A DNA stretch of 64,000 nt, from positions 4,976,259 to 5,040,258 of the forward strand of contig CAVNZM010000002.1 in assembly GCA_963693365.1 (NCBI GenBank), given 5' to 3'. This document shows, in pieces, positions 8,954-42,002 of the stretch. Source of the DNA: Amoebidium appalachense (Eukaryota > Protista > Ichthyosporea). How positions within the stretch are numbered: the stretch's first letter is position 1; each line of letters starts with the position of its first letter. Below the pieces are notes generated by a model that saw nothing but the letters and a program-made list of their open reading frames with translations, ran no database searches and had not been told where the DNA came from. The translations under genes were made by a program, and so were the position numbers.

Positions 8954-9393
8954 GTAATCCAAAGTGCCGGTTTGGACACTGTGGTGGTGATGGTGCAAGT
9001 GCGTGTTTGTGTTGATTGGGAAGGAAAGCAAAAGACAACACACAAAAAACGCACAAAGCAAGAGAATCGGCTAAGATGTGGTGGTGGTGGGTTGGGGGGG
9101 GAAGGGGGGGGGCTGGAGAAAGGGTCTGAGAGTGCAGGTGTATGAGTTGATGGGTGTGGGTATGGGACGGTGTGTCCATGGATAGATTGGAAATTCTCAG
9201 TTTCGGTTTAACAGTTGGTATTTACCAGTATATGTGCATATAGCAGATGCTGCAACCCCCGAAGAGAGGCAGAGAGCAAGGGGGGGGGGGGGGGGGGGGG
9301 GGGGGGATGCATTAGGGGGTGTGGCAAGGGAAGAGACAATGAATAGGAATGATGGGGTGCAGAAAAGCAGACAGAAAAAGCCGAAAAAACAAA

Positions 9394-9457
<64 letters not shown>

Positions 9458-10040
9458 GAGAGAGAGAGAGAGAGAGAGGGAGGGGGGGGGGGGGGGGAGG
9501 GAGGGAGGGAGCAAAGCATTATAGAAATCCCACTAATCGAAATTCGATCCTTTGCACTCATCCGCGAGACGACACAGAAGAGAGAGTGTGTGTGTATGTG
9601 TGTGCACGTGCGCGTGTATGTGTGTGCGCATGTATGTATGTGCGCGTGTATGTGTGTGCGCGTGAGCACACGTGTGTGTTCTTGCATGTGATTGTGCGTG
9701 CGTATGGTGTCGTGCGTGTGTGCTTTTCTGCACGTATGTGTAAGTGTCCATGTGATGTGTCTGTCTTTCTGTTTGCTCGAAATTCTTTACGGGGGAAGCT
9801 CCCCGGGGGGGAGGGGAGGGGAGGGGGAGGGGGGGGGGGAGGGGGGGGGGGAGGGGGGGCCGGGGGGGGAGGGGGGGGGGGAGGGGGGGGAGGAAGGAGG
9901 TTGCCACAATATCATCGGTTGGGACAGGATCCAGCTTCCAGTCAGGGTGTCTCCCTTTGAGGCAGGTGGCGTGCTTGCCGTCACATTTCTTCTTTCGCCT
10001 CGAACACATGGGGCACGCTGGTGGACGAACAGCAACTACA
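4830..10040 (-). CDS. Multi-exon protein with four CxxC-x6-C motifs resembling the first half of the fungal Zn2Cys6 cluster, and an acidic C-terminus; exon model incomplete, 5' end unknown
   Basis: Exonic islands: ~10035-9905 ACPMCSRRKKKCDGKHATCLK; ~8400-8195 PCDVCRRSKKRCDGTFPRCAK ending CAG|GTGATT; ~6930-6752 RCDFCVRCKKRCDGTYPRCAK ending GAG|GTAGAT; ~6370-6224 KCDKCRQGRRKCDGTCSFC ending CAG|GTAGGC; ~5005-4830 acidic MQTEEPMRDEDG...LLS*. Confidence 0.55.
5275..5380. repeat. Dispersed intronic repeat family A, bounded by G tracts
   Basis: TTGAATGCG..GTACGAAGTACAC..GCATAATAAGCAGAGCCCATCCTCAG. Near-identical at 42595-42700; diverged at 5182-5245, 47846-47980, 56477-56575, 44038-44150, 61260-61350; inverted at ~6558-6680. 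Confidence 0.8.
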
Positions 10041-12570: not shown

Positions 12571-17755
<5,185 letters not shown>

Positions 17756-18146: not shown

Positions 18147-20918
18147 GCCACGGTGTGCGTGTGCGCGCGCGTGTGTCTAAAGTAAATTGTGTTGTATTTC
18201 TACGTGTAAACGCGCATGGGTATGGGGGAACCAAGGAAGCCTGAGACTTTGCTGTCTAGCCTAACAGGAAACCTCTCACCATAGGAACGACCCTGCGTCT
18301 AACTATATATTTGGTTCACATAGCCTGCGGATTAAAAGCCATACCTGTATATGCACAGATATGGGACATAACGATTACATATACCGGATATTCAGTGTGT
18401 ACTATTCAGGCGGTGACGGACAACTTGATTTTCAAAGGGCTGACATAACTGAGATTGGATCAATTTTCATGTTTTTTGCAGTGTTGATCCTCTTAGCATT
18501 GACGTTGGCCTGAACCATATGATTTACAATACGTTTACGTAAGGTGCCACTGATAACGATGTCCCGAAGCGGAATTTACTTGTAGCCACGCATTACAGTA
18601 CTCTTACGGCGTACGTACAAAACCCGGGCCCCAATTGGCCAACTTCCACACGGTGCCACCTGTGGACGTTCAAGGAGACGTCGACCGTCTTCAGATGGCA
18701 GAGCCCACGTTTGTCGGGTCGTGCACATGTGTGCGTGTGTGGGTGTGTGCATTTGCGAGTGTGCACATGTGCGTCTGTTGTTGCGTGTTTACATGGGCTT
18801 TTAAAAAAAAATTGATATAGATATAATGTGGTAATTCTAATGTACGAGTTGCCTTGTCATAATATACAAGGATCCGGAGCCCCTAGCTTACATACCATCC
18901 TCTTTGACGTTCTTGTGCGTGGGCCATGGGCGCATATGATGGCCGCACAATGATGAGACGACTCAGCCGAGACTCCCCAAAGAACAACAAAAAGTATTTA
19001 ATAACTCACAATTTACAACCACGCTCGACTGTAACATGCAAGAGTTTGTTCACGAGGTGCGCGGGTGCTGCGTGGCATGCAGAATCACATTCCACAAATA
19101 CCACAACAGCATATTTTGGCTCAAGCACTCCAGTATAGTCACTCTGAGTGCTGTCTCCCTGCGGCCTCTTCTTCTTCTTTTATGTTTTTTTTTTTTTTTT
19201 TTTTTTTGAAAGGTATAGTACTACTGAGGCCGGGCCTGGCCACTTACGTAAGGCGCCAGCGGGTACCAGTACATAGCCTTCCCCAGTAGCGGGAAGGGGT
19301 TTCCAGGGTTTGGCGCTCTTAATCGTATTTGTGCACATTCCAGGCATTTTGACACCCTTCACGGCCGTATTTACTAATTGGATGCCCATTTTTAATCGTA
19401 AGTACGACTATTTTGGGTCGTATTGCAACCCCTGGTAGAGGGTGCGCATAGGACCAATCAACGGTGTAGTGACTTCAAAAATTTTATACAATAACCTTTT
19501 TGGGAAAGTGCAGTCACTCGTGTATGAGCGAGATATCCCTTGGATAGTCGGGCCTATAGACCCCCCTCTCTGATAGACCCCCCTGGCATGCCCCTAGCCT
19601 GCCGCACGCATCATGCCAGCTCAGTCTCTCGCTGGCGCTCTCTCGTTCAGGTCTGATCCTTTCTTGTTACACGTGTCGTAGCTCTCCCACGCGTCCGACA
19701 ATACAGGCTCACCCACGTTATCACGAGGTCAGTGTCTCTTTGCCTGTCTTGTCTCCTTTCCGTGCCTGGAGCACGTTGACACATGGTAGCAGAAAAGGTT
19801 CTTTCCTTAGCGCCCTGAGAGCCCCTACCGTCACGTTTTCCACTTGTGCCTCTGCTCTGCCAAAAAAACTCTTTATTTTTTATTTTTTTTACTTTTTTCT
19901 TCCTTAGCAACCTACCGGCAGACCTTTAGGTTACTTCTTGTGTGTTTGCTTATGTCTCACCGCTGTTCTTTCCTGCCAAGTTGCCTTGCTGAAGAAGACT
20001 TGACTGTTCTTTCGTTTTTGGCTGTTTCTACGTTTTTTCGTTTTTTTCACCCCATCCGAAGCATCTTCCTTTTCCATGGGCTCATTTCCGAAGCCACCTG
20101 CCAACGCCCTTTACTTTCGTTTGCGGTATAGTTTCCTGGCCCCCTGTTGCTACTTTCCTGCTTGACTTTGTACAAACATCCTTGCCTTTACGTTTTTGGC
20201 CTGTTTTACGTTTTCCACTTTTGCCTTCACATCCTTAGCATCTTGCCTTCCCATTGGCTGCCCAGTTGCCCTAACTTCACACTAGCTTTACCTGTATACC
20301 GCTGTATGCTGTTTTTGCAAAAAACACACAACCCAATGCACACGAAATTCTGCTGTCAAACAGACCATGATACAATTGCTATACCAACTGCTGTCTACTT
20401 TTTGCCTACACAACGAAGCATTGCCTCGCTGAAGGTCATACACACAGCACAGCCACAATAAATATTACGCTTGCCAGCGGCAAGTTGCTTTAGTTTTCCG
20501 CCGCCGATGCTAAAATTAGTCCGACCGTACGTTTTGTTTTGCCAAAACATAGTCTGCTAGCACCTTTATACCACCCATACTTGCACTTGGCCGCTGTCGC
20601 CACCCTTTACACACTTGCTTGCTGATATATGGCCGCTGTCGCCATTAACACACACTGCTGTGTGCCCGTTGCTGATGCTTGGCCGCTGCGCCACACATAC
20701 ACTTTGCCTTTGCTTCTCTTGGCCGCCGTTGCCACACGCTTGCGATCACACTAGGCCACTGTTGCCACACCCTGCTTTCACGCTTGACACACTCTAGCCT
20801 TTGACCGCTGTGTCACACAAAGCCTTTGTTTTGCACTTGCCCGGTTTTGCTCTCATTCCCTTTTGGCCACCGATGCCCCCCCACGTGCAAGCTGCCGTTA
20901 CCCTAACCCGATAGATTT

Positions 20919-20952
<34 letters not shown>

Positions 20953-21113
20953 TTAAAAATTTTTTTTTATAAAAAAAAAAAAAAAAATCTGGTTTATGCA
21001 TTCGAGCTGCTAGCAATCGAAACGACTCACTGCCCCACGACTCACTGCCTCACTACGTACCAAAAATCACTTTGACTTACACTGCAATACCACACCCACC
21101 GACCCACACTACC

Positions 21114-24100
21114 ATGGCTAATCCCAACGCTCTGAACAATCATTATGCCATTATGGCCCTGCCTGCTGAGCTCCATGCCGCCCCGCAGCAGCAGGTACAA
21201 GAACCTGACAACCCTGGCACGCCTATATATGTTGCTTCCCCTGATAATAGCGATGATGAAGAAGTCTGGGACCCTGCCTATGGCCACTGGCAGGTAGACA
21301 CTGCTTTGCACCCCCATATTACCGTCCGCCGAAACAAACTGCCCAAAAATGTTGCTGCTGCCCCATTCACCAAAGACAATGAGCCTCATGCCCCACTTGT
21401 GTTTGGCACACAGAATACTGAACTTGTCGCAGTGACAGCATGCCCCAATGACTCAAACAATGACGAAGATTGGATAGATGCACGTTTCTATTTCAATGCT
21501 TATGACATGCTGCCTCCCATGCCAGTGCGCGCGAAAACCTTTGCCAACCCACACCCACCTATGCAGGAACCTGTCCTTGTTGCCATGGATCCACAGCCCC
21601 AATTGTTTGCCGCTGGCAATGCCGCCCCCGTGCCCCACGTTGGTGGTGCTGCCCCCGACGTGCCCCACGTTGGTGGTGCCGCCCCCGTGCCCCAAGTTGG
21701 TGGTGCTGCCCCCGTGCCCCCGGGCCTTGGTGTCCCCGTGCCCCCTGTTGCTGGTGCTGCCCCCGTGCTCCCCGTTGCTGGTGGTGCCCCTGGTGGTGCT
21801 GCTGCTGTTCCTGGTGGCGTCCCGGCCGCTGCCCCTGCTCAGGGTGCGGGCCAGCCTGCCGCCCACATGGCCGCTGTGGTCCCTGCCGAGCATCAACAGC
21901 ACGCTGCTGCTGCCGCTGGTCACGCCGTCGCACAACCGGTGATGCAACCCATTGCCTTCCTCCAGCAGGGTGATGCTAACCTGGCTGCCGCTCTCGCCAT
22001 TGCCCACCGTGACCAACAGCTGCGTAACCCGCGCGCCGAGATTCTCAAGACTTGCAAGGCGTCCCTCATGAATGTCACCACGTCTGACAAGGACGCATTT
22101 GAGAATTTTGAGACGCACCTCAACTACACGCTCACCACTGTTGATGGCGCCAACACCCTCACCGACGGGGAAAAGAAGATGCTGTTGCTTGCCCTGCAGC
22201 ACAACGTGTACAAGAATGCGCTTAAGGACATCTCCGTCCACCCGGAGCTGACGTTTGAAGAGGCACTCGCCCGCGTGAAGAATGTGCACCTCACTCCCGA
22301 CGAGCTTTGCCCCTGGCGCAGCTGTAAACAACTGTACACATGAACTGTACATGATGTTTACTAAAGAATGTGATCTACTAGCACACGATTCGTGCTTTGT
22401 CATGAATATCACATAAATATTATGTCCGCACCAATAGGACTCACTCTGACCTAAGAATTGAACCATATATGGTTCTTCCGCTGCATACCACATAAACGAA
22501 GTGAACCAATAAGAGGTTTGCATAAATAGGACAAAGGTCTGACTGGCTCGGACTGGCCGCACCAGAATCACGAATGGCATGTTGCCACCCGCGCTGGCCG
22601 CGGATGAAGCAATCCTGGGCCTTGATCCGAAACCTGGGGGCTATATAACAAAGCCGTCCCAGTACGGGGATCACATCAGTGAAGTCTGAGACAGACTGAG
22701 TCGGCCCATAGTAAAAGCAACCTGGCCGCGTGTGCCTTTCTACCCGTTCTCTGTCTTTATTTTGATTCAGTTGTACTCTGCCTTATCCTAACTAGTCCAA
22801 CTGTTTACATTGGCGACCGCGGCAGGACACTGTTTTACATTGCCAACTGTTTACATTGGCGACCGCGCAGTTCAAGAATCTCGCATCCTTCGAATCTCAC
22901 ATCTTTCAATCAGTTCAAGAATCTCACATCTTTCAATCAGCTCAAGAATCTCCCATGGCCGATCACAATCCTTTTTACCCCGATGATAGGCACATCTTTC
23001 CTTGTCCGGCTTAGAATATATACACCGACAAGTTTGAAGTGGCCAGCCCACCTACACGGAAAGAATTGAAAGCATGTAAAACTTCTTTTGCTACGACACA
23101 TCAAAAATGTGAAGAAAAACGAATACACAACGAAACAACGAATACACGAACAAACGAATAAAGAATTGCTAACGAAGCAATGAACCAACGAAAAACGAAC
23201 TATCACGAATACGCAATGAAATAAAGAATTAACGACAAGCGAATGCATAAAGGAAATACGAAATGAATGCAACACAAAACAAAACAAAGTAACGAAGTTA
23301 TCAAACGACAAAAAACGAAAAACGAAAGCAAAATGAAATGGAAATACGAAAATGAAAGAACGAATGCACAACACTGCTTGGGTTGCAATGCACACAGCCC
23401 CCTCTATGTTACGAAGAAAAGAAAACCGTTGCCCTTGCGTGCATTGCGCTATTGCACACTGTCATCGTGTCCATGCCACCGCATGCACCTCCACACTCGC
23501 AAGCCAGATGCACGGCCACTTTCAGCACGAATGCATTTAAAGAAGAAGATAGTCGCTGTTCCTATAGCATTGAGGACATAAGGTGCTGTGAAAGTAGTTT
23601 TGCATGCATGCTTCGAATTTCTTGCTGTTTTCGAATACAGCATGCCCCATAGTTTAGCGGCGCACAGGATGCACAACATGCGCATGAATGTATGCTGGCA
23701 TGCCTAAACACATTACGAACATATGCCTCATGTATGGCGGCCCTTCCTGGTGCCACGCCCTAACGAATTTGCACTCTTGGTGCACAAAAGGCATGTAATA
23801 AAGTCGATGCAGAACTTTTGTTCATGCATGTGAAAAACAAAGAAGGTGTTGGGTACGAATTTTAAGGTGAATGCCCGTCTGTGGCAATACTGTGTAACAT
23901 ACCAATTACACTGTCAAGCCTTGCACTAGCTGCCGGCACACCCCCACCAGAACAAAAGAATGTGGTATGGGCACCGTTCCCTCACAACCCCAGCATACAG
24001 TGTCAGTATTTTGGCTGGAAGCCTTTCAGTTTCGAATTACGAATACCCTCCTTCACTACTGAAGAAAGTGACGTGGAAGACGAATACGAATACGAATGCA

Positions 24101-27100
24101 AGGTGTTGTTGACTAACACATCGGACCATCATGTGTACCTAGGCCCTGGTACGGAGGTGACCATGTTATTCCCTTGCAATATGATGACACTGTAACAATT
24201 TAGCACGTGCATACCCCACCAATGGGCACATGCGGGAGACAACCCCACAAGCTGCCTTATTGGGCACCTCTGCTAAAACGAATATTCTTCTCACGAAGGA
24301 ACAGAAGAATGCCACGAACACGAACCACACACCCCCCAGGCAGCTACTTACGTCTGATGTATGAAAGTAGTAGGTGTGTGAATGGGGTAACTACATGAAC
24401 ACCAACACGAAAGAAAGCACAGCACAAAGCAGTTCCACGAATACGAATGGTTTTGGTATTCCACATAACGAACAGAACCTACAGTAGGGCCACCTACAAA
24501 TGAAGCAGAGGATGGGGCACCATCCAGACCTGCACTGGAGGATATGAAGATACGAAGCGCGCTCACGAAGTTGCTTACAAAAGAAAGGGCGACTGCGACG
24601 ACTTTTCTTTTTAGGCCAAGCCTCCAGAAGAATGTATTATGCCTGGAATCCCCCTGCTCAACGAAAATGGCTGGCAAATGGGATACGAAAACTGCTCACG
24701 AATGGAAGCATGTGTTTTCTGAAGGAGGCTTGCTTTGCCTACCCTCTTCTTATGAATTATGAACCGGGCTTTTACTGGTTCTGACGGGTGATATATTTCT
24801 TTATGTCGCCCAACGAAGAACACTTGGGCATTTTTATTCTGTTTTTCCCAGCTCCGATGATGCAGGGTTAAAGCTGAAAGGAAAGAAGTGCTCTTTGTTC
24901 ATGAAAGAAGTGGCTTTTCCGGCCATGGTGACTCGCCTTACAGTCTTAAGGTAGAACCGGGATAAGGAGCAGCGGCTAAGCCTTGAAGCTATCCACCACT
25001 ACCTGAGCTACGAAGTGACCTAAGGCTCGAGTTATATTCATTATCGAATGTTTGGTATGATCATTCATCCACACAACCAAATTACTCGCAATTGAAAACG
25101 AATCTGCGGGAGTATCCTAAAAAGGAAAAATTCCCAAAAAGGAAAATACTACTTCTACAGAAAAGCCAAGCACAGAGACGAAGGCTTAGCGAATTATTCG
25201 CACGCACACTCTGCAACAATCTTCGCCACGAAAATGAAATCACAGAAGAATGCTGCATGAATTTACGTTTTGGCAAATGAAGAAGTGCTCATAGACGTGC
25301 ACAACTCTATTCCACCGTCCTTGCTCTGTTCTGTCCAGCAGCTCGGCACACACAAGAATTCTCGCTGAAGGTTGTTTATCGCCTCTCAGCCTGGTGGTTT
25401 GCTTGTCTAACGACACCACCAGGCTCCCGACAAGGGGGGGAGTGTAAACAACTGTACACATGAACTGTACATGTTTACTAAAGAATGTGATCTACTAGCA
25501 CACGATTCGTGCTTTGTCATGAATATCACATAAATATTATGTCCGCACCAATAGGACTCACTCTGACCTAAGAATTGAACCATATATGGTTCTTCCGCTG
25601 CATACCACATAAACGAAGTGAACCAATAAGAGGTTTGCATAAATAGGACAAAGGTCTGACTGGCTCGGACCGCACCAGAATCACGAATGGCATGTTGCCA
25701 CCCGCGCTGGCCGCGGATGAAGCAATCCTGGGCCTTGATCCGAAACCTGGGGGCTATATAACAAAGCCGTCCCAGTACGGGGATCACATCAGTGAAGTCT
25801 GAGACAGACTGAGTCGGCCCATAGTAAAAGCAACCTGGCCGCGTGTGCCTTTCTACCCGTTCTCTGTCTTTATTTTGATTCAGTTGTACTCTGCCTTATC
25901 CTAACTAGTCCAACTGTTTACAGCAGCTACCACATTGCAGATGGCACGAAGATTTCCACGGTGGCCACCGACTACCACAACCTGTTCAACACACACGACG
26001 CCGCCGAGACCGCCGAAGCCTTTGGCCACCTGTCCAGCAACCTTGAACGTGTGTGCCCGGCTGCCATGGAGCGCCTGAACCGTTGGATGTATGACCAGCG
26101 CATGATCACCGGCAAACGGCCCACCATCCCCGAACGCCTTCGCTTTCTCTCCACCGGCAGCGAAACGTGCACTGAGCCGCGCATTGGTGGTGGCTACATG
26201 CCTGCCCCGCCTCGTCCCATTGCCGCTGTGATGCCCCCTGCTGACCACGGACCACTGGGTGGGGAGCGTGATTTCCCTGCCATGCAAGACCGCCGCCCCG
26301 CCGCTGGTGGGCCTTTGCGTAAGCAGGTGCGCTTTACCGACCGGGACGCCCCCCGCGACAACACCGAACGCCTCTGCCCCTTTGGTGACCTTGACTGCCC
26401 GGGCAAAGCGCGCAACAGCCAACCCCACCCCTTCCGCTTTTTGGGCTGCAACTTCTACCACCGCATGCTCCACGACACCAACCTGGAGGTGGACTTTGTG
26501 CGTGTGTACCGCGCTGCCGTCCGCTGCAGCGTAGCTGAGGCCTCTGCGGCTTGCGAGGAGATCATGGAGGATTTGCGCAACGACGCACGCCCGCGTGCCG
26601 CTGGCCCCGCTGAGCGCAACGACCGCTTTGGTCGTAACAATCGCTTTGACCGTGATGACCGCGGCCGTGATGGTGGAATCCGTGCCCGTATGCCTTCCTT
26701 TTTCCCCACCCCAAAACCCACAGACGTAAACTTTAACAGCAGACGCATTGCTACTACGCACAGTATACGTGTAGGCGTGAGCTTTCGTGGCGCACTTACA
26801 GGCACAATGGACTCCGCACACCCTACCACACACAAACCAAACCTACGGCCAGTTGCTCCCATTGTATATTCCGCCACTCTTGATCAGGAAGATAGATACA
26901 GAAATGGCAGATGGATTGCAAAACGCCCGAAAATGCTACCTGCACAGAAAACACCACTGCGCACTGCCCCTGCCCCCCTTCTTCTGCCCCCCCCCACCCC
27001 ACCAACACCCAAACCCGCCCCCTTTATCCGCTCGGGTTTCAGCGCATTTTGGCCACCACGCGTGAAAGACCCCCCTCTCACGAAGTTGTGCAAGCACTGC

Positions 27101-27112
27101 ATATGCCTGTGA
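21114..27112 (+). CDS. gag: Gypsy Gag (21114-22322 joined to 25928-~27075 after removing the nested element)
   Basis: Excising 22323-25927 restores the frame: ...ELCPWRS|YHIADGTKISTVATDYHNLF... Ala/Pro-rich repeats (VPHVGGAAP) precede a predicted helical capsid-like region. Confidence 0.8.
22323..25922 (+). mobile_element. Nested non-autonomous LTR element (LARD-like, 3.6 kb) inserted in gag
   Basis: LTRs 22323-22809 (487 bp) and 25443-25922 (480 bp), TGTAAACA...TGTTTACA. 5-bp TSD GCAGC. PBS TGGCGACCGCGGCAGGA at 22811 (tRNA-Arg-type 3' end). [14 protein letters not shown]. Only decayed pol traces inside (AGLKLKGKKCSLFMKEVAF at ~24860). Confidence 0.93.
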
Positions 27113-30100
27113 AATTACACGACCTTCCTTACAATGCATGCGCAGACAGTGGCTCGTACATTACTCTTGCAGATCAGACTGTATATGAAGCTCTAAGCGC
27201 AGAACACCAGCGCACACACAACAGACGCTTGCCTCTTTTTCCCTGTCCCGATGAGCGTGCACAAGCAGTGAACAACACAACAGTTGACTTTCTTGGTTAT
27301 GTGCACACTACTCTGACTGTGGGACACGTAAACAGAAAAGTGCGAGTGTATGTTGCAAGAGAAAGCCCGCTTCCCCTTATTATTGGAACAGACTATTGGG
27401 GCACACTGCTCACCTCAGGCATACACACCGCACTCATTGATTTCCGCACGCTCATGATTGGAAATGCACACCTTGGCTGGTCTGAAGTAGCATGCCAAGT
27501 CGAACGCGTACCTGCCCCGCAGTTCAACCCCCCCTCCTGCCTCACCACCCGTGCACAACAGCAAACGCAGAAGACTTATGTTATTGCCTCTCTCTCGCGG
27601 CAGGTGCCCAGCCCTACCGCCGCTAAGCAACAACAGGCCCCGCCGTGCCCACCCGGACACTCTGATAACCGCCCCGCCAATGCTTCCACCGTTCCTACCC
27701 CCCTGCCACCGAGACCATCCCCCCACTCCCTGGCTTATGCTGACGGCCTTGCGCCTATGGACCTGGGATCCGGCACCGCCCATCCTCAGACGGTCACCTC
27801 GACACTTTTAGCTAACGCTGGCGCCTATACGGCTATGGACATAGACACGGGCAGTGCCCCCTCTACAAATGTCAACACTGGAATAAATGCAAATGTACTG
27901 TACTCGCCTACCGCGTTGAATCATGTAAACCAAACCGTGACTGAAACTATGACTGGCAATGTTACTGGCTTTACCTATGAACGCATGAAAGACACAACTA
28001 GTACTTGGATTCCCACTGCAGTGTCTGGAATACCCCTCTCTGTTGGAAGATGGTATCGTTATCCAGTCCGATCGCATGAATCAGATCATGATCGGCTGGT
28101 GGCCTGCGAGATCTTAACCGATCTCGTAGCTCAGTTGGTAGAGCACTCGACCGGAGATAGAGGGGTCGCGGGTTCAAATCCCGTCGGGATCATCTTTTTT
28201 TCTCATCCTCTCCTCGCTGGGGTAAAAGCCAGCACGCCTTTACTGGCGTCATCACAACCATCGGCAGTGGTTAGGTTGTGATCTCAAGGCTAGCAAGATC
28301 GCTAGTCTCTGCACCAGGACAAAATCCAAAATGGTAGCATGAACAGAGGTTCAGTGGGGACTGAGGGGGCAGTCCACCCTAACCTGATTCTGCGATTCGT
28401 CCTGAGTGGGGATGTTGGAAGATGGTATCGTTATCCAGTCCGATCGCATGAATCAGATCATGATCGGCTGGTGGCCTGCGAGATCTTAACCGATCTCGTA
28501 GCTCAGTTGGTAGAGCACTCGACCGGAGATAGAGGGGTCGCGGGTTCAAATCCCGTCGGGATCATCTTTTTTTCTCATCCTCTCCTCGCTGGGGTAAAAG
28601 CCAGCACGCCTTTACTGGCGTCATCACAACCATCGGCAGTGGTTAGGTTGTGATCTCAAGGCTAGCAAGATCGCTAGTCTCTGCACCAGGACAAAATCCA
28701 AAACTCTCCCTCTCCGATCCGGAACCCCCCCCACCCTGCCCAGATTTTGCCTCTCTCCCACATATGCAGACACAACCGGCCAACCCCCCCCACCCCCCGC
28801 CCTGCCATCCACCCCACGTGATTGCATCCACCCAACCACCACCCCAACCCCCGTCTTCCCTTCCACCCCCACCAACCCCACCCATCCCTTCCCCCGCCGC
28901 CCGAACTGCACCCACATATCAATATTCCGTCTGCTGCCTCGAGAATGTTATAATCCCCCCGCACTGTATATATGACGGATTGCAATGCAGTGTGCCTGGT
29001 TTGCAAACTCAACACATGAACACATACGCAGATATGTCCCCCCCGAGTGACCGAAAGAGGCTAAAACGATTGGACGGGTTGGAAATTGCATACCACCTAT
29101 TCACCCTCCGCAGCGATAAGCGTGTCAGTTTACAAGTTATGAATCTGACAAACCATCCGATCAAACTTAGCCGCAAGCAATTAATGGGTTACATTGTGCC
29201 GGGTGAAGTAGAAGCGATTCTCCCTATACCTGATATTCTCGAAGACATTAATCTACACAACCCCACCCCCCAACAACAAGACCTCCTAGCCTCTTTACAA
29301 AATGATTGGATTACCGGCCCAGACTCTGAGCCCGAGGAGGAAATGCAGTACAACATCCCCACACCAAAAGTAGTGACAGCCACGCATGCGCGCACACGGA
29401 CACGCCAACCGGTTCCCCCACCCTCGGATCCCCCTAAACCCCCGACAACCGACCACTTGCCGACTGACACTGATTTTGAGGCGCGCCCGCAAGCCTTTGA
29501 CTATGAAGGTGAACATGATGACATTTTCTTTGATCCCCGCACAACGATGACTCACGAACAGATTATTGCGCTCGGCGAAAAAGAAATGAAACACTTACCC
29601 CCCGCCGATCGTGACCGTCTCGTCCAGCTACTGTCCGATTACCGCGAACTTACGAACACAAATGTAGTTGGCTCTATGACCAAAGCCATGGGAATTTTCC
29701 ACCACATTGTTCTCACAGATAACACCCCCACCACTTCAAAATTTCGCCGGTACGCGAAAATCGAGCGTCAAGTCATAGCGAAGGAAATTTCGGAAATGTT
29801 GAATTTCGGAGTGATCGAACCATCCACTAGCGAATACAACAGCCCACTGGTACTGGTAAAAAAAGAAAAATACCAACAAATTAAGGACATGTTACGATGC
29901 AAGAATTCTTAACGGCAAGACAAAGCGCACAATTTACCACATGACACGCGTAGATGAAAGCCTCGACTCCCTCTCGGGTGCCAAATTTTTCACCTGCCTT
30001 GATGCACGCAGCGGATACTGGCAAACACTCATTGCTCCTGAGGACCGCAAGTACACTGCATTCAGCACACCTGAAGGGCATTTCCAATTTGTGGCCATGC

Positions 30101-33099
30101 CTTTTGGACTCACCAACGCCCCCGCTTTCTACCAACGGCTCATGAATATTGTGCTGCACGGCCTCACGTGGAAATGTGCCGCTGTGTACTTAGATGATAT
30201 CATCATATACAGCAAAACCTTCGACGAACACATGGAACACATCAAGCTAGTGTTCGACCGCCTTGCTACCAACGGTGTACGCCTTAACCTTGAGAAGTGT
30301 GCATGGGCACTTTCCCAGGTCGTGTACCTGGGCCACCTAGTTTCTGGCTATGGCGTGCGAGCCGATCCACAAAAACTCACAGCAGTGAAAACCTGGCCCA
30401 CACCGACTTCTGTGAAAGATATCCAAACATTCATTGGCTTTGTCAACCACTATCGCCGCCTCATACCACACTTATCACAAACCGCTGCCCCTATCCGTGC
30501 CCTGATGATTAAAGGCACAGCATGGAATTGGACACCAGAATGCGCCACAGCGTTTGAAGCACTCAAACAAGCACTCGTGTCAGACCCGATTGTTGCTCAC
30601 CCGAACTTCGATCTACCCTTTTATATCGCGTGTGACGGTTGCACCCGCGGTATCGGTGCTGTGCTATATCAGATACACGACGATGGCATGGAGCACCCTA
30701 TTGCCTACACAAGCCGCGCTTTGCACGGAGCAGAAAAGAACTATGCCCCCACGGAGCTTGAGTGCCTTGCGGTTCTACATGCAATTCAGCAATTTCGCCC
30801 GTACGTGTACGGCCAACGCTTCACTGTCATCACTGACCACAACGCTCTGCGTTACCTCATGACAAAAGAGGAGCCAGCTGGCCGCCTTGCACGCTGGGCA
30901 CTGCAGCTGACAGACTACGATTTTGACATTGTACACCGACCAGGCCGCCTGCACGTTGTACCTGATGCGCTGTCACGCCAACCTCATTACCCACCTGCGG
31001 TACCCATCAACCCCCCAATCCCCCCTCAGCCCCTCCTGCAACACACCACACCCATCCCACCTGGCCCTCAGCAATCGGTGATTGCTGCAACCCAACCGGC
31101 ACCTCCATCCTCCCCGACCATACCACCCGCACCACCAAACTCGCCCGCCCTCCCTCGAGCACCGAGGCCACCCGAGGATGTGATTTGGCCGGAACCAGAT
31201 CTCCCCGACGCAACCCCAACCGCTGATCCTGATCTTGTACCGACTGCCACACGCTCTCATTATGACCGACCGGTTCACCCGACACGAGGACATATTATTG
31301 CCGCTATCATACCCTCTTACACTATCATCGACCCCACCGCACTTAAGGAAGCACAACAGCTTGATCCGGAGATTAAGCCAATTATCGACTACCTTGTACA
31401 TGATATCCTGCCACTGGATAACGAGCAATTAGCCCGGCGGCTAGTGCTTGAACGCGACCAATATGTGTACGAGAATGAAACACTTTACAAAATCAACATC
31501 CCCACCCGCCCTGGCTATAAGAACAAAATTCAATTCCGCATTGTGATACCAAAAGGTTTCAAAAAGCAGGCCCTGCAGGCATGCCACGACGATGTCTTTG
31601 GTGGTCACTTAGGCTTTTCAAAAACCTACCAGAAGTTGTGTGAACGCTTCTATTGGCCAAGTATGTACGCTGATGCCAAACACTATGTCGCGTCCTGCAA
31701 CACCTGCCACAGCGCCAGACGGCCGCGTGTAAACCCTCATGCCCCCTTTCAGTCACGCCTGCCCGCTCAACCTTTTGAGGAGATATCCATAGACCTCCTC
31801 ATTCCCGCCATAGCCTCCTTCAACGGTAACAAATACATTCTCGTTGTGATTGATAATTTGACCTGCTACGCGGAAGCATGTGCACTCCCCTCAAAAGCAG
31901 CCGATGTTATTGCCCGGTGCCTCATTGACAACGTGTTCTGCCGCTATGGTTTTCCGAAGCGCATACTTTGCGACGCCGAGAGGATTCTCACAGGCGAGGT
32001 TATGACTGATGTCTGCCGTATTCTGAATATTGACCGAATTGTGCTGCCCCCATATCACCATGCATCTAACGGCCTGGTAGAAAAGCTAAACAGGGACATT
32101 ATCGATATTCTGAAGATGTATGTGTCCTCACATCAGGCTGACTGGGATATATACCTACCCACTTCCCTCTTTGCTCTGCGCACATCACTTAATGCCAGCC
32201 GTGGTAACACACCCGCGTTCCTCCTTTATGGCTTCGATCCCCGCCTACCCACGGATCTCCCCTTTCACCATCCTGACGCTGAACGCCTTACCGAGCAAAC
32301 ATACATGGAGCAAATGCTAACCAACTTGCATTACGCTCGGGCGCAAGCACAAGAGACCTTGCGTGAAAGCCGTGCGAAACAAAAAGAGCATGCTGACCGC
32401 ACACGCACAAAACCACCCCGTCTCTACACGCCTGGCACACGCGTATGGGTGTTCACCCCAACCACAAAGCAATATCGCTCAGGGAAGCTCACACACCACT
32501 GGCAAGGTCCATACCGTGTCGGCCGCGTCTGGCCCGGTACCACCCATGCATACCAACTGATGACTCCTCGAGGTAAAGCAACGGCCTACCCGGTACACCA
32601 CGATCGCCTCAAACCGTACATCGATCGCCCCTCCCGCCCGTTAGACGATACCTTGCCAGCCGAGCCTTCCATTCCCAGGCAAGCTGACCCAGATGCCGCC
32701 CCACATGTGCACCAAGCACAGGCCGAAGCTGTGCGCATAGAAGCCGCCGCGTATGCTCAACCCCTTGACGAGCCTGATCTACCGGAAGACACACAATTCC
32801 GCCCTGCCACCCCTCCACCTATGCCTCCACCCCCGCCTCCGCCCTCATCCCCAACCCGCACGCCACCACCTACCCCGCCCCGTACACGAAAGCGACACCG
32901 CCGGACCGAGAGATCACCATCACCGCCTCCCGCCCCGCCACCACCATCCTGGCAGGCACCCGACGGCCACATAAATGCGCCATACCAATTCACCTGGCTT
33001 GCACCAGGTAGAGCCCGAGCCCCCAATGGTGACCACTACTACCTCCACAAAGACAGACACACCGGCCAGTCGATCTGGCTACTACAAAAGTACCAGTGA
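27075..33099 (+). CDS. pol: Gypsy Pol: aspartic protease, dUTPase-like spacer, RT, RNase H, integrase; split by a TRIM and a frameshift near 29860
   Basis: Protease ACADSGS; RT LDARSGYWQ, MPFGLTNAP, VYLDDII; RNase H ACDGCTRGIGAVL, ELECLAV, TDH; integrase HHCC finger, D-D-E core (SIDL, CDAE, GLVEKLN) and GPY motif. Removing 28041-28708 restores GIPLS|LSDPEP in frame. Confidence 0.93.
28120..28192 (+). tRNA. tRNA-like 73-nt cloverleaf (GGA at the anticodon position, short variable loop) in the TRIM 5' LTR
   Basis: Acceptor GATCTCG/CGGGATC plus discriminator A; D arm GCTC-AGTTGGTA-GAGC (A box); anticodon arm CTCGA-CCGGAGA-TAGAG; T arm GCGGG-TTCAAAT-CCCGT (B box); T7 run at 28195-28201. Confidence 0.8.
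28492..28564 (+). tRNA. Second, identical tRNA-like copy in the TRIM 3' LTR
   Basis: Same sequence as 28120-28192, offset by 372 bp, followed by T7. Confidence 0.8.
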
Positions 33100-33180
33100 C
33101 CGCCTGGACTAAGTTAACTTACCACAAAACTGATACCTCGTGACCGGATGCCGCTGAGTAAGGTAAAACACACACACACG

Positions 33181-33225
<45 letters not shown>

Positions 33226-34218
33226 TGTACACGCACACTGCCACACACACGCACACAGGCACACACACTGGCACATACCGCACACCACATGCACCCGCAC
33301 TCTTGACACATGCACTCAGTCGCACGTGCCCTTTAGATCTAGACTTAGTGTGTGTATAGCCGCAGCAAAAATGTATATTTAAAATGGCATGTAATGTATA
33401 TGATGGGCCATTATAGGGCGTCCCCTGCTGTGCAGTGTCCTATATTGGAAATGGCTGATGGATTTTGGGACTTTGCCACAGCCACGCGCGACACTCCCCA
33501 TCGGTGTCTCTTAGCAACCCGCTGGCCGGGCGATAGCTTTCTCACCTCTCTGCTTACCTTTTCTTTTCGTTGTCTCTAGGTAGCTCTGCCTACTGTTTTT
33601 GCTTTTGCTTACCCTTGTCTCTTCTGCATGAGCTCGGGGCGAGCTCACCGCCGCCCGGGGGATGTATGAGCGAGATATCCCTTGGATAGTCGGGCCTATA
33701 GACCCCCCTCTCTGATAGACCCCCCTGGCATGCCCCTAGCCTGCCGCACGCATCATGCCAGCTCAGTCTCTCGCTGGCGCTCTCTCGTTCAGGTCTGATC
33801 CTTTCTTGTTACACGTGTCGTAGCTCTCCCACGCGTCCGACAATACAGGCTCACCCACGTTATCACGAGGTCAGTGTCTCTTTGCCTGTCTTGTCTCCTT
33901 TCCGTGCCTGGAGCACGTTGACACACTCGAGTCTGCAGAGCGCTCTGATTGGAGCACCCAAAAACCTATGTGGAATGTGCACATGTCTCCATCATATGCT
34001 GCCATATGTTACGTGGATCGCATGTACCTACATGTCCGGGTGTCACAGCAGTCGTGATACTCGTGCACGAGCTTACACGCTATGTGTATACACGTACACG
34101 CACAGTCACACGCACACCCCCCCCCCCCCCCCCCATATATATGTACACGCACAGTCACACGCACACTCCCCCCCAATCACCCCCCGTCGCCCAACCCCCC
34201 CCCCCCACACACACCCCC

Positions 34219-35367: not shown

Positions 35368-35402
<35 letters not shown>

Positions 35403-35959
35403 TGGTAGCTTGAGTTGCTGGATTGTTTATTCTGGCCCCCGGGGCCTGCTTATATACCTTTGGCTGACATTCGAGATTGATCCTGATTGGTAAATCTAAT
35501 TCTAATGACGTCAATACTTGACTATCTACCAATCGTATTAATGCATCGAATGTTCTAGATCTGTCTCGATCTACCGTGAATATCCCTGAATATACAAGAT
35601 ATCACCTATGACTAGTATTAGTATACACTTATCTATGCATTATTCTATCATTAATACCGAGTACACAGGGCGTGACTATTCTATTATCTATGGATTCTGA
35701 CACCCCCATTTGCACTGTGTACGAATCAATATACTCTAACGTAATTCCCTGTCGCGAATATATTCTAAGTGTATTCTCTATTGCATGAATATTCATGTCT
35801 ACACTACACACACGGTTGACTAAGTCAGATGAGGCAAGGCCCCCCAATCCTACATCTGTACGACATCTAGCTAAGTCCTAGGCAAATAGTTAATGTTGTA
35901 TAGGGCCACCTAGTAGCTGTCCTTCGTGTGGTATTCTCACGAGTGAGGCTGGTTCTCAC

Positions 35960-38900
35960 TCCGCCATGCTGATGCCCTGCCGATGCATGACTATCCTGTT
36001 CCGTCCTAGTGCGTTGGTGCACATGTCGGCAACGTTGCTGTTGATGCTGCATGCAATAAACGAGTTCCACATCCCCATTCTCGATGCATTCTCTCATATG
36101 ATGATGCTCGTCATCTATCAGCTCTGTTCTGTGTTGGAATGCAGGGTTGTTGGCTATCTCGATACACGCCCTGTTGTCGGCGTAAATGACCATGGGTTCC
36201 TTTGCGTTGTAACTTGGCCAAGACTTGCAGCAGATGTCTTAACCACTTTACTTTCTTTAATGCTTGACACGTTGCCACATACTCTGCCTCTGTTGATGAC
36301 AGTGTGACGGCTGTTTGTTGCTTGCTGCTCCAGCTAATGGCTACGCCGTTGGCCTTGAAGATAAATCCACTTGTCGATCTCCTGTTGTCGACATTGCCGG
36401 CGTAGTCGCTGTCAGTGAATCCCACCACTGACAAATCGTTGCTGCTGCCTGCCCGGTAGGTGAAGCCGTAGCTGGCTGTTCCCTTTAGGTGACGGAGCAG
36501 ATGTTTAAGTGCCTTCCAATGTTGTCTCCCTGGGTCGCTCGTGAACTTGACCAGTGCCCCCACTGCTTGGGCTATGTCTGGTCTTGTCTCCACCATCGCG
36601 TACATAACTGAGCCGATGACGCTGGCGTATGGCACTGCTCTCATGTCGTTTCTCTCCTCCTCTGTTGCTGGCCATGGACACATGCTTCGACTTAGCACAC
36701 ATCCTTCCGGTAGAGGTGTTGACTTGGCTTGGCAATCTGTCATTCCGTACCGTTGCAGCACATTCTTGATGTAGCTCTCTTGTGACAGTTTAATGTCACC
36801 GGTGGTTGGGTCACGGGCTGCTTGCACTCCGAGTAGTAGACGTGGTTCGCCGTTCACTTTGATGCTGGAGTACCTGCTGAGCTCTGCAACAAATTCGTCC
36901 ACTAGCTGCTGATTTGTTACTGCTACTATCGTGTCGTCCACATGTACTGCTACCGCCGTCTTACTGCCGTTATTCTCCTTGATGTAGATATACTGGTCGG
37001 AGCTGCACCTTGTGAAGCGACTGGCAATCATAGCCTCATTCATCCTGATATCAAGTTCCATGCTCGTGCAGATTGCTTGTAGATCTCCTCGGTGATATCC
37101 CCGTTGGGTGAAGTTGTCTCGAGATTCATCTGCACTATTTTCAGTCTTTCCGCTGCTGCTATCGCCAACAGCAGCCTGAAGCTTGTAAATCTTGTCCCTG
37201 GGGCAAACGTTTGGGCATAGTCTATTCCCTCTTTCCACTCATCTCCGTCCGGCCGAGCCAGTGCCTCCTGCACTGTGATGGGGTCGTTCTCGTCTGCCTG
37301 CTCTATGGCCAAGCAATCACTCTCTGCTCTGATGCCCTCAATTCCCCCCACTCCTTGTCTGATTCGTCGTCTGCTGCGAATTCTGCAAAGGTGGGTACTT
37401 CGACGATCGTGTCGTCCGCGCTCTCACTGGCGCTGTCGTGGCCCCCGGCACTGGCATCCAGATTGGAATTCAGAATTGTGCAAGTCTTGCTACCGATTGG
37501 CTCCCTGGAATTCTGGATCTGCCGATCTCTGATTGGCTGCTTCTCCATGTCTTCTGCATACCGTCGTAGATCCTTCTGCTCGCCCTCTCGCTCGATGTCG
37601 GCGGTGATTATACTAACACTCTCGGACTTGGATATGGGCATAACGGTGAGTTGGTATAGGCCGTCCTCCTCTATGCCCACCATCCTATCCACACCGGTGC
37701 TGTCCTAGACTGCACAAGTGCCGTTGCCTCTGATGCTCACGCAGAGGCCTCCCTTCCTGGCCTTTGAGTCCCAAACTCAGGCCGGGGTGAACAACACATT
37801 CTCCAAGGCGAAGACGTCTTCCTCTCCCTTGACACATGCAGTCAACGTGACACTGCCTATGCCTGATGCGAGGATGGTGCTCTCGGGTTACCCAAGATGA
37901 TGTCCCGAGGTGTCATAGGGGGGAATGTCGAAAACCATTCCCTCCGACAGCACATGTGTGATGTTGCTCCACTGTCCAGGTACCATGTGCACTCCTCTGG
38001 TAAGGCTCTGTCCTTTGGCCTTGCCGTTCCCGGTGGGCCCACTACTTGCTGCCACCGGCACCACCTAGACCACCACCCGGGCCATCTTAGGAAAAACCAC
38101 AGTAGAGTCAGTCCTTTTTCTTTTCAAAAATTTGGCACCCACGGAACACAACACTCCCCCCACCACCCCAAAATGCAAAAACACCACCATATACCCACCA
38201 CCCGTAGAAAGAAAAGCATGGCTCCCCAAAAACCCAAGACACCAACAAATACACCCCCCACACACACCCGGCCGGCCTGTTCTGACTGCCGGAACACACA
38301 CAGACCCGGTGTGCCCTGTAAAACCCACCTTTTAGTCCACAAAAACATCGCCACAACATACGTACAACAACACATAATGTTAGGCAGCAACCCCCCACCA
38401 CCACCACCACCGCACCCCATCATCCACCCATACCCACCGTAAACACTATACACAACACCTAGGACTTCCCAAAACTGTAGATCGACCAATGAGAGCCCTC
38501 GGTTGACGTTTATTGCTAGGTTTTGAATGGAGGGGAGGACTGGAGCCTCCTGCCGGCGTGGCTGGGGTAGTAGCCCTGGGCAAAGTGTGTACTTATAGTT
38601 AGGTTGTGAAGGATGGTTTAGCTAGCTGAACTCACAGATAGCACCTTAACTAGTGTACTGTCGGTGCTGTGTGGTAGACGGTAGTTTCCCTAGAGGGCCT
38701 GAAAAGGCCCTCCGGGAACAAAACGTGATTAAAAAAATAAAATAAAAATGGCCTTGCCGTTCCCGCCATGAAGACCATCGGTTATCTATCGTAGTTATCG
38801 TTGCGCTGGGGCTGTAGCTTCTTGCCGTTGATGTGTCTCTTGGACCGGCACTCATTCGCTTTGTGGCCAATCTTGCCACATCTGTAGCACGTCAAGCTCT

Positions 38901-39450
38901 TGGGCTTGTCACTATCTTCCGCAGGCTGCCGTGGCTGCTGCGCCGGTTGACGGCTCCTTGCCAGCATGGCGTTTTTCGCCTGGTTCAGTTCTCTCTGCTT
39001 CTCGTGCGCCCGCAGTCTGGAGAGGACTCCTGCCATTGTCTGCTCTGATTTCGGCAGTGCACTGATCATCATGCAGATCTGGTCGTATCGAGGGTCTGAC
39101 CGTACACCTTGCAGGAGCTGCTGCGCCACTAGCTCATCTGGCGCATACTCACGTTTTATCTCAGGCGCGTAGTTGCTGCGCGATACCCTCCAGCCTTGAA
39201 GCGAAATCTAACACCCTTCTCAGTGGGCTTAATCTTGGCCTGGCTGGATTCGGCTGTCAGCAGGCTTCAGTTCGCATCTGACTTTTCTGCGTTTTTCTCA
39301 GCTATCTTTTCCCAAAGGGCTTGGGGATCCCCAGCGTTGATAGCTGACATGAAGAGCATCACCTGTGTGTTGCTCAGCGCACCGACGATGTACAGTACCG
39401 TCCCCCTTCCCCCTTTGAACCCCCTGTTTCATTACCCATAATTTCTCTTC
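35960..39450 (-). mobile_element. Decayed Ty1/copia retrotransposon interior (gag, PR, partial RT, RNase H; integrase core deleted; LTRs not found)
   Basis: CCHC knuckle CYRCGKIGHKANEC; protease WYLDSGATSHMC; GIDYAQTFAP; AVHVDD; TRPDIAQAVG; GFTDSDYAG...STSG, SSTEAEY; IYADNRACI. Multiple frameshifts, stops and deletions. Confidence 0.92.
38033..38748 (+). mobile_element. A-tailed non-LTR retroposon insertion (5'-truncated LINE or SINE) in the copia gag-PR linker
   Basis: 17-bp TSD TGGCCTTGCCGTTCCCG at 38016-38032 and 38749-38765. Tail AAAAAAATAAAATAAAAA directly before the right TSD. Excision restores copia ...MVFMAGTARPKDRALPEECTWYLDSG. Confidence 0.8.
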
Positions 39451-40681: not shown

Positions 40682-41726
40682 GAGGGGGAGGGGGGGGGTT
40701 GTTAAGCTCGAACGACCGTGGGTGTAGCATTCGGCAAATACACGATAATGCGTCTCAACTTATCATTCATTATAGCATCACCATGAAAATCACAGTAAGT
40801 ACAGGCGTGGATATACATAAACTTCCATTGACACTATGTATTTGAGGAAAACCAGAGTGAAACGTTCATAATCACATATTTCCTGTCTCGTTGTTCGCAA
40901 ACATGTACATTGACACTAGGTAACATCTGAGATTCAGAGCCTCAAAAATACCGGAAAAATCGACCAAAAATCCCTCTGACATCAGATATATTTTTATGTA
41001 CAAACCGTCTACTATGTCCAAGTATATATTTTTGCTTCTAATTTAGGGCATATGCCTGTTCACTCTTCACACATGCACGACATACATACTAACAGCCACT
41101 ATAGCTCACATGCAAATAGCTACTCCAGGGAGACAGCAGTTTAACGGAAACAGAGAAACCAGAGACACACAAGTAAAACCCCCTACGGACCACCCTTGCA
41201 TTCTCGTTCACATTCATCATCAGACGGGAAACACATCAACCGACAGAAACTGTATCATGCGCAAATTATCAAACAGAAAGGTCCTAGAATCCCCCCCCCC
41301 CCCCCCCCCCTCCCCCCTCCCCCCCCCCCCCCCTCCCCCCCCCCCCCTCCCCCCCTCCCCCTCCCCCCCCCCCCCCCCCCCCCCCCCACACACACACCAC
41401 CACCACCACCACCACCACACCCACAACCACACGCACACACAAAAAAAAAGAAAGAAAAATGAAAAGGGCAAATGAAAAAAGAAAAAAGGAAAGAAAGCCC
41501 CACCCATATTGTTTCCATGCATCTACAAAAAGCCACCATTCTTTCATAGAATTAATAAGCACCACCCACACGACACCAACACCATAAACATTTGAACACA
41601 CACCTCACAAAATACTTAAAGCACCATATTCCTATCTACCATTCTATCGTCTGGGAGGCGAGCCACATTGATGACATTTTTCTGTGCACGATCTTTCATG
41701 CAGCCACGTTTTCTTTAACGACTAAC

Positions 41727-41923
41727 GGTTCAAACCATACTACGTACCAGGTCAGACTAGCAAAATTTAGCCGCCGCCGGCTAAGATTGCTATGGTATAT
41801 GACGTCACACCAATCTACTACCATATTTAGTAGCAAATCGGTAAACGTCACATTCCATAGCAATCTTAGCCGGCGGCGGCTAAATTTTGCTAGTCTGACC
41901 GGGTACGTAGTCTGTTTTGAACC
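41727..41923. repeat. ~197-bp imperfect palindrome (MITE or foldback-like)
   Basis: Arm GGTTCAAACCATACTACGTACCAGGTCAGACTAGCAAAATTTAGCCGCCGCCGGCTAAGATTGCTATGG and its reverse complement flank a partly paired centre. Confidence 0.85.
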
Positions 41924-42002
41924 CTTTCTCCTTAAGCTTTGTTCCCATGTCGACATATCAATCTCGGGAGGTTGACACATTATAATGACGGCTGCTGATT
42001 GG

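Follow-up and report, generated by a model that had tools for sequence, protein, structure and literature searches.

We have found that a 663-bp element in the genome of the ichthyosporean Amoebidium appalachense, located within the window (the whole stretch of 64,000 nucleotides that was analysed), is, with a probability of roughly nine in ten, a young Helenus-type LTR retrotransposon that is present in many copies and contains no genes; each of its two LTRs carries a tRNA-like unit, which is likely a promoter rather than a working tRNA. This kind of element is already known in fungi, animals and one plant, and what is new here is the family and its ichthyosporean host: an earlier note on this DNA had proposed a new lineage or host range, of which the new host range and the new family stand, while the kind is not new, since the architecture is covered by the paper on Helenus (Kojima 2024, PMC10886601, in the parts of the paper and its supplement that are drawn on here), to which the note had alluded and which is real. 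Helenus was defined there from sequence alone, and with the family described here its hosts now include a unicellular relative of animals. Amoebidium is a protist genus that is kept in culture and for which data on the methylome and on demethylation exist (PMC11244446, in part); because the family is young, abundant, present in RNA-type assemblies and belongs to a cultured genus, the polymerase involved, the dual use of the T run and the escape from tRNA processing become testable here.

Architecture, insertion site and copies of the element

The two LTRs are identical at 291 of 291 positions and enclose an interior of 81 bp without protein match, which starts with TGGTAGCA and ends in a purine-rich stretch (8 of the last 10 nucleotides); the TSD is CTCTC in the one copy that was tested (Table 1). 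These dimensions, which the earlier note had given together with the PBS and PPT, have been recomputed, and the empty insertion site that is present in a contig of public run X11 agrees with them. The LTR termini are TG...AA, not TG...CA: a contig of run X2 joins another left flank at exactly 28040, and contigs of X11 join another right flank at exactly 28703, as well as further flanks, so that TG...AA are the true ends of the family.

The TRIM is inserted in the pol of a gypsy element that has identical 263-bp LTRs and a 4-bp TSD, and the insertion in a young gypsy pol was described correctly before; on one side of it is the protease-like part of the gypsy, recognised by a weak match to Pfam (E 0.011), and on the other the ORF for RT, RNase H and integrase, and the gypsy ORFs on its two sides share one frame after the 668-bp insert is subtracted. 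The identical LTRs of each element and the ORFs that are in frame without the insert indicate that both the TRIM and its host gypsy are recent.

Table 1. Features of the TRIM and of its insertion site, in positions of the window
Feature	Position	Strand	Basis
Left TSD, 5 bp	28036..28040	+	Sequence; empty site in X11
5' LTR, 291 bp, TG...AA	28041..28331	+	LTR comparison; flanks of other copies at both exact ends
Predicted hairpin, putative U3	28058..28103	+	Folding
9-nt arm, predicted pairing partner of the 5' acceptor strand (28120-28128)	28105..28113	+	Folding; shuffle control modest
tRNA-like unit, putative R region	28120..28192	+	ARAGORN, Rfam
T7 run resembling a Pol III terminator; numerous further copies have T5	28195..28201	+	Sequence, contigs
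Four predicted back-to-back hairpins, putative U5	28216..28308	+	Folding, z -4.08
PBS, 3'-end iMet type	28332..28339	+	Sequence; start alike in fungal Helenus
PPT	28403..28412	+	Sequence
3' LTR, identical to 5' LTR	28413..28703	+	LTR comparison
Second tRNA-like unit	28492..28564	+	ARAGORN, Rfam
Second T7 run, putative transcript end	28567..28573	+	Sequence
Right TSD, 5 bp	28704..28708	+	Sequence
Host gypsy, pol interrupted by the TRIM	19521..33925	+	ORFs, LTRs, TSD, Pfam

The predicted fold of the LTR has a z-score of -4.0 relative to dinucleotide shuffles (-4.1 for its 3' part), and the LTR hairpins that had been named in the earlier note are recovered in it. The tetranucleotide GATC occurs 8 times per LTR, compared with a shuffle mean of 2.4 (0 of 2,000 shuffles reach 8), an excess that may in part reflect the hairpins that contain the sites; a connection with DAM-encoding retrotransposons has been considered and set aside, as the preprint on these has 0 mentions of GATC. 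The residue at positions 28212 and 28584 is C in both LTRs and T in all examined contigs that cover the site, and may be a private change that was copied into both LTRs, or a feature of the assembly.

At least half of the sampled words of the element are present in 19 of the 24 listed runs (in run X20 the share is 0.05), and contigs have been examined from four runs (X1, X2, X6 and X11). In X11, the depth is approximately 5,127 over the interior and 9,100-9,600 over the LTR, compared with 36.4 at the single-copy esterase locus of the window; the ratio of interior to esterase, approximately 141, corresponds to some 140 elements, a rough estimate, given that the contig depths are summed and overlapping and that X11 may be the source of the DNA analysed here. 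The independent flanks and the depth ratio point to many copies, not to a single one without relatives, and the family contigs span the tRNA-like unit, contrary to what is expected if relatives lacked it and the unit were a one-off SINE insertion; on both points, the earlier note had made its proposal depend.

In runs X1 and X6, which belong to two different study codes, the esterase mRNA is present in spliced form, and both therefore behave as RNA runs. Each of them contains the LTR plus the interior as a single 400-nt contig (depth approximately 105), which suggests that the element is transcribed, although DNA carry-over from a family of 140 copies could also be the source of these contigs; no gypsy pol contig is present in either run, but this absence, like that of the esterase from X2, proves nothing by itself. 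As all runs consist of contigs, the strand and the ends of the transcript are not visible in them. Another contig of X6 (depth 62.7) departs from the LTR at 28684, 19 nt short of the LTR terminus, and continues in a different sequence; it may represent a subfamily, a truncated copy within a transcript, or a related element.

The tRNA-like unit and its possible role in transcription

In the whole 64-kb window, ARAGORN reports two tRNA genes, both located in the LTRs of the TRIM. Each unit scores 57.4 bits over the full Rfam model RF00005 (gathering score 29), and the canonical-length cloverleaf of 73 nt with an intact A box (28127-28138) and an intact B box (28171-28181), as the earlier note had described it, is borne out. 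At E values up to 1, Rfam reports only tRNA in the LTR and no 5S rRNA-derived sequence, with one lower-scoring overlapping match of the same clan left out of the listing. Directly behind the unit is located a run of at least four T, the only one in each LTR, and no such run occurs in the interior; it comprises seven T in the present copy and five T in the contigs of X1, X2 and X6, and in X11 the shorter form makes up about half of the depth at this site. No match to TATA or AATAAA occurs in the LTR of the TRIM; a TATA match is present in three of the four other LTR regions that were scanned, and the LTR of the host gypsy is also devoid of one.

We consider it probable, though well short of certain, that Pol III would initiate just upstream of 28120, driven by the unit of the 5' LTR, would leak through the T run at 28195 into the hairpin-rich U5 and the interior, and would terminate at the equivalent T run, at 28567, in the 3' LTR. 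The product would be an RNA of approximately 455 nt that carries the tRNA-like unit as its repeated end (R); the first strand would be primed by the host iMet tRNA at the PBS and the second strand from the PPT, while the proteins of another LTR element, one that makes 5-bp TSDs, would copy and insert the TRIM. In the long RNA, the upstream arm and the pyrimidine trailer may unfold the acceptor stem, and thus protect it against cleavage by RNase P and RNase Z.

In order to replicate, a Pol III RNA must pass the 5' T run and stop at the 3' one. According to the available part of a study in yeast (bioRxiv 10.1101/2021.08.27.457903), short T tracts terminate weakly, RNA structure blocks the Sen1 fail-safe termination, and a folded acceptor stem makes weak terminators stronger. 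By analogy, these data would fit a leaky run that is followed by a hairpin-dense U5; since the folded acceptor strengthens weak terminators, however, the predicted masking gives no preference for the second run over the first. By the same yeast standards, the T7 run of both LTRs would be a strong terminator, which counts against leakage, and yet this copy has been recently inserted.

The predicted pairing of the acceptor stem is 0.97 for the unit alone, approximately 0 when the U3 is included, and 0.01 when the trailer to 28220 is included; the competitor for the 5' acceptor strand is the 9-nt arm of Table 1, by a predicted pairing of 9 bp. When the U3 is shuffled, the acceptor pairing is also lowered to 0.05 or less in 365 of 500 cases, and is as low as with the real U3 in 18 of 500, while 176 of 20,000 shuffles place the perfect 7-nt arm within the final 25 nt; this control speaks only modestly in favour of masking. 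Among the 31 bivalve Helenus LTRs in one part of the supplement of Kojima (PMC10886601), 24 have, as judged by eye, an upstream arm that is complementary to the 5' strand of the unit, and the other 7 keep the acceptor stem and have no upstream arm; because these families are related, the parallel amounts to about one independent case. The main text of that paper has 0 occurrences of "hairpin", "palindrom" and "inverted", and none of read-through.

An alternative explanation that we find rather unlikely, but the strongest of those considered, is that the element is an ordinary Pol II TRIM, or is transcribed by read-through from host transcription nearby; the unit would then be a passenger left by an old SINE insertion, or would have no role other than as a signal in chromatin or RNA structure. 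At the T7 run, Pol III would mostly stop whereas Pol II would not, multi-unit read-through transcripts are produced by Cassandra arrays (PMC7215508, in part), and the contigs of the RNA runs include the U3 upstream of the unit, which the 3' LTR within a Pol III transcript would supply likewise. The putative U3, however, is just 79 bp long and lacks any match to a TATA or poly(A) signal, and the preservation of the boxes, stems and T run next to a drifted anticodon loop is the pattern that Kojima describes for Helenus (PMC10886601, in the parts used here).

A further alternative, which we regard as improbable, retains the Pol III start, with an RNA that passes both T runs and either ends further downstream or has its end cut by the enzymes of tRNA processing, which could act on an acceptor stem that is formed across the two copies of the unit. 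This cross-copy stem is predicted at 0.71-0.74 for an RNA that starts at 28120, but at only 0.21-0.25 for a start at 28116 and at 0.04 or less for earlier starts, and it is absent from the centroid fold of the 458-nt RNA; the X6 contig that leaves the LTR at 28684 is in line with such a transcript.

That the unit is a working tRNA-Ser, or the element's own primer, is very improbable, in spite of its canonical length, its Rfam score and the ARAGORN call of tRNA-Ser(GGA). The cloverleaf has C at position 33, where 102 of the 107 retrieved tRNA calls have T, as well as a G-A mismatch in the anticodon stem, and combines the Ser anticodon GGA with a short variable loop; tRNA-Ser identity demands a long variable arm. 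Judged by these sequence features, the unit is not plausible as a working tRNA. In the Amoebidium genome, tRNA finders would report false tRNA-Ser(GGA) genes by the hundreds, to the number of a few hundred. As a primer, the 3' end of the unit plus CCA pairs with just 4 nt of the PBS, and this candidate has been rejected. Finally, a one-off SINE insertion, a local duplication or an assembly artefact, in line with the absence of a second copy from the 64-kb window, can be dismissed in view of the empty site, the independent flanks, the depth ratio and the presence of the element's words in most of the listed runs.

Candidate helpers, other elements of the window and origin of the unit

The PBS is assigned to the iMet type by comparison with the PBS of the host gypsy and that of fungal Helenus; 8 nt of it are common to the TRIM and the host gypsy, which agrees with the shared PBS type of the earlier note. 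The same note had looked for the helper outside the host gypsy family, a reasonable position given the TSDs of 5 bp and 4 bp, respectively, and had called the TGTTGG start copia-like: we consider a copia helper likely but unproven, another gypsy a serious possibility, and the host gypsy family a very poor candidate for making 5-bp TSDs. Two observations weigh against the copia assignment, namely that an unclassified LTR element of the window also has a 5-bp TSD, and that the copia of the window starts with TGTCAG, not TGTTGG. No autonomous helper that shares the termini or the interior of the TRIM has been matched among the other elements of the 64-kb window, and none of the loose contig ends, among 10 of the 11 listed, is located deep inside the TRIM interior.

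Several other elements are located in the window. A second small non-autonomous LTR element (14481-15638, minus strand) has LTRs of approximately 437 and 417 bp, identical at 410 of 417 aligned positions, with TGTTGG...CCAACA ends; it matches TATA but neither tRNA nor 5S, one of its termini shares 9 nt with the start of the TRIM, and its PBS is of the half-tRNA iMet type, which is linked to copia by Kojima (PMC10886601, in part). Nested in the gag of the host gypsy is an LTR element (22323-25922) with LTRs that are approximately 98.6% identical and a 5-bp TSD, whose PBS differs, whose interior is degraded, and for whose class tblastn gave no match. On the minus strand at 35400-39400 is located a degraded copia with zinc knuckle, Pol beta-barrel and RVT_2 pieces, whose 3' LTR is the one with the TGTCAG start, and at 41715-41935 a 221-bp imperfect palindrome, possibly MITE-like. 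The esterase locus (2115-2936) is an exon with 99% identity to an Amoebidium parasiticum EukProt protein, the next match being at 43%; it belongs to a spliced alpha/beta hydrolase whose other listed relatives are metagenomic or prokaryotic (37-51% identity), and a horizontal acquisition is possible.

With regard to the origin of the unit, a 19-nt D-arm word that is identical to that of the TRIM unit occurs in three oyster families, Helenus-1_SaGl, Helenus-2_SaGl and Helenus-2C_CGi, within the part of the published Helenus collection used here. By hand count, these match the TRIM unit at 30, 30 and 29 of 39 interior positions, respectively, and a fourth family with the word, Helenus-2_TeGr, at 25 of 39; a control of 167 distinct prokaryotic and viral tRNA cores with that word, which includes no eukaryotic tRNAs, gives a mean of 21.0 (sd 2.2, maximum 26 of 39). 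The anticodon loop of Helenus-1_SaGl agrees with that of the TRIM unit at 6 of 7 positions, including C33. Unlike the TRIM, however, the three oyster families have 4-bp TSDs, His-type PBSs and gypsy-type helpers, and their LTRs are short (128-129 bp and 123 bp, compared with 291 bp). As the control holds no eukaryotic tRNAs, a shared source tRNA or convergence is as likely as shared descent.

A bacterial origin of the unit has also been considered. Of the matches to the first 25 nt of the unit, 111 out of 118 in metagenomes and 121 out of 122 in genomes are tRNA-Lys(UUU), and the 80 listed titles are nearly all of Bacteroidota. When the search word and the acceptor stem are disregarded, the agreement has a mean of 22.2 of 39 (maximum 26), the same as for other isotypes, and the tRNA-Lys match therefore fails as a sign of bacterial origin in this control, which includes no eukaryotic tRNAs. 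The 121 viral tRNA cores have 103 different acceptor 7-mers, the 5 viral matches to the LTR start extend over only 18-21 nt each, and no copy of the element was found in 119 metagenome loci. One metagenome contig (L048:1001-1316) contains four tandem tRNA 5' halves with a broken 3' end, 97 bp apart.

A wider reading, which we put forward as doubtful, is that the TRIM and the oyster Helenus share one module (the D arm and the derived C33 loop), inherited or horizontally transferred, and that a helper of the 4-bp gypsy type was exchanged for one of the 5-bp iMet type; the module would be a conserved RNA device beyond a promoter, where the leaky terminator sets R, the upstream arm hides the cloverleaf, and the self-complementary anticodon loop could serve dimerisation. 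If true, Helenus would date to before the origin of animals, and the TRIMp3 elements would gain a mechanism. As a dimer signal, the loop palindrome has been rejected: a 4-nt palindrome is also present in 7 of 32 real tRNA loops and in 23% of random 7-mers, and is by itself no evidence for dimerisation.

Comparison with known elements

In the literature on Helenus and TRIM elements and on transposons of Amoebidium and ichthyosporeans, we have found no earlier account of an element of this kind from this lineage. In the main text of the paper on the Amoebidium genome, the words tRNA, copia and gypsy occur 0 times; an unnamed entry for the family may exist in the supplements of that paper, in Repbase or in Dfam. 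Amoebidium has 0 mentions in the supplement of Kojima (PMC10886601), as far as it was covered, and the hosts of Helenus in its Table S1 are fungi, animals and Selaginella only, whereas the host of the TRIM is an ichthyosporean. Identity with an already described family, which the earlier note had allowed for, finds no support in the published Helenus file: the terminal and PBS motifs of the TRIM have 0 matches there, in a file whose line breaks may hide matches, and of six TRIM motifs four are without match and the other two match one unrelated family each.

Compared with Helenus (TRIMp3; PMC10886601, in the parts used here), the TRIM agrees in every structural criterion: both are non-coding, with two LTRs that contain a tRNA-like unit with retained boxes A and B, a PBS and a PPT, an implausible isotype and no self-priming. 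The reported size range of 311-1263 bp, and the limit of about 1 kb for TRIMs in general, include the 663 bp of the TRIM, the reported TSDs of 4-5 bp include its 5 bp, and the box motifs (TRGCY and YGG for box A, GGTTC for box B) are present in it. A T run is located behind the unit in many published Helenus LTRs, as in the TRIM, and a few of these LTRs, too, end other than in CA; the TRIM has approximately 140 nt of structured sequence after the unit, whereas most of the published Helenus LTRs considered here have only a few tens, with the exception of a ctenophore family.

Three fungal families, Helenus-5_PSt, Helenus-3_PTrit and Helenus-1_AmAr, resemble the TRIM in having a 5-bp TSD, a TGTT start and an 8-nt PBS start that is identical to that of the TRIM and directly abuts the LTR, although beyond the boxes their LTRs have, by eye, no similarity to the TRIM. 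The TRIM and rust Helenus have a 9-nt motif of the interior in common (7 matches, 5 of them examined), possibly by chance. According to Kojima (PMC10886601, in part), fungal Helenus has the 3'-end iMet primer class and is linked to copia helpers, and Helenus was probably born multiple times; Cassandra is, in the same account, the only TRIMp3 with demonstrated Pol III transcription. Cassandra, a plant TRIM, has the same design as the element described here and a Met PBS, but its promoter is of the 5S type and it is found only in plants, whereas the promoter-like unit of the TRIM is of the tRNA type.
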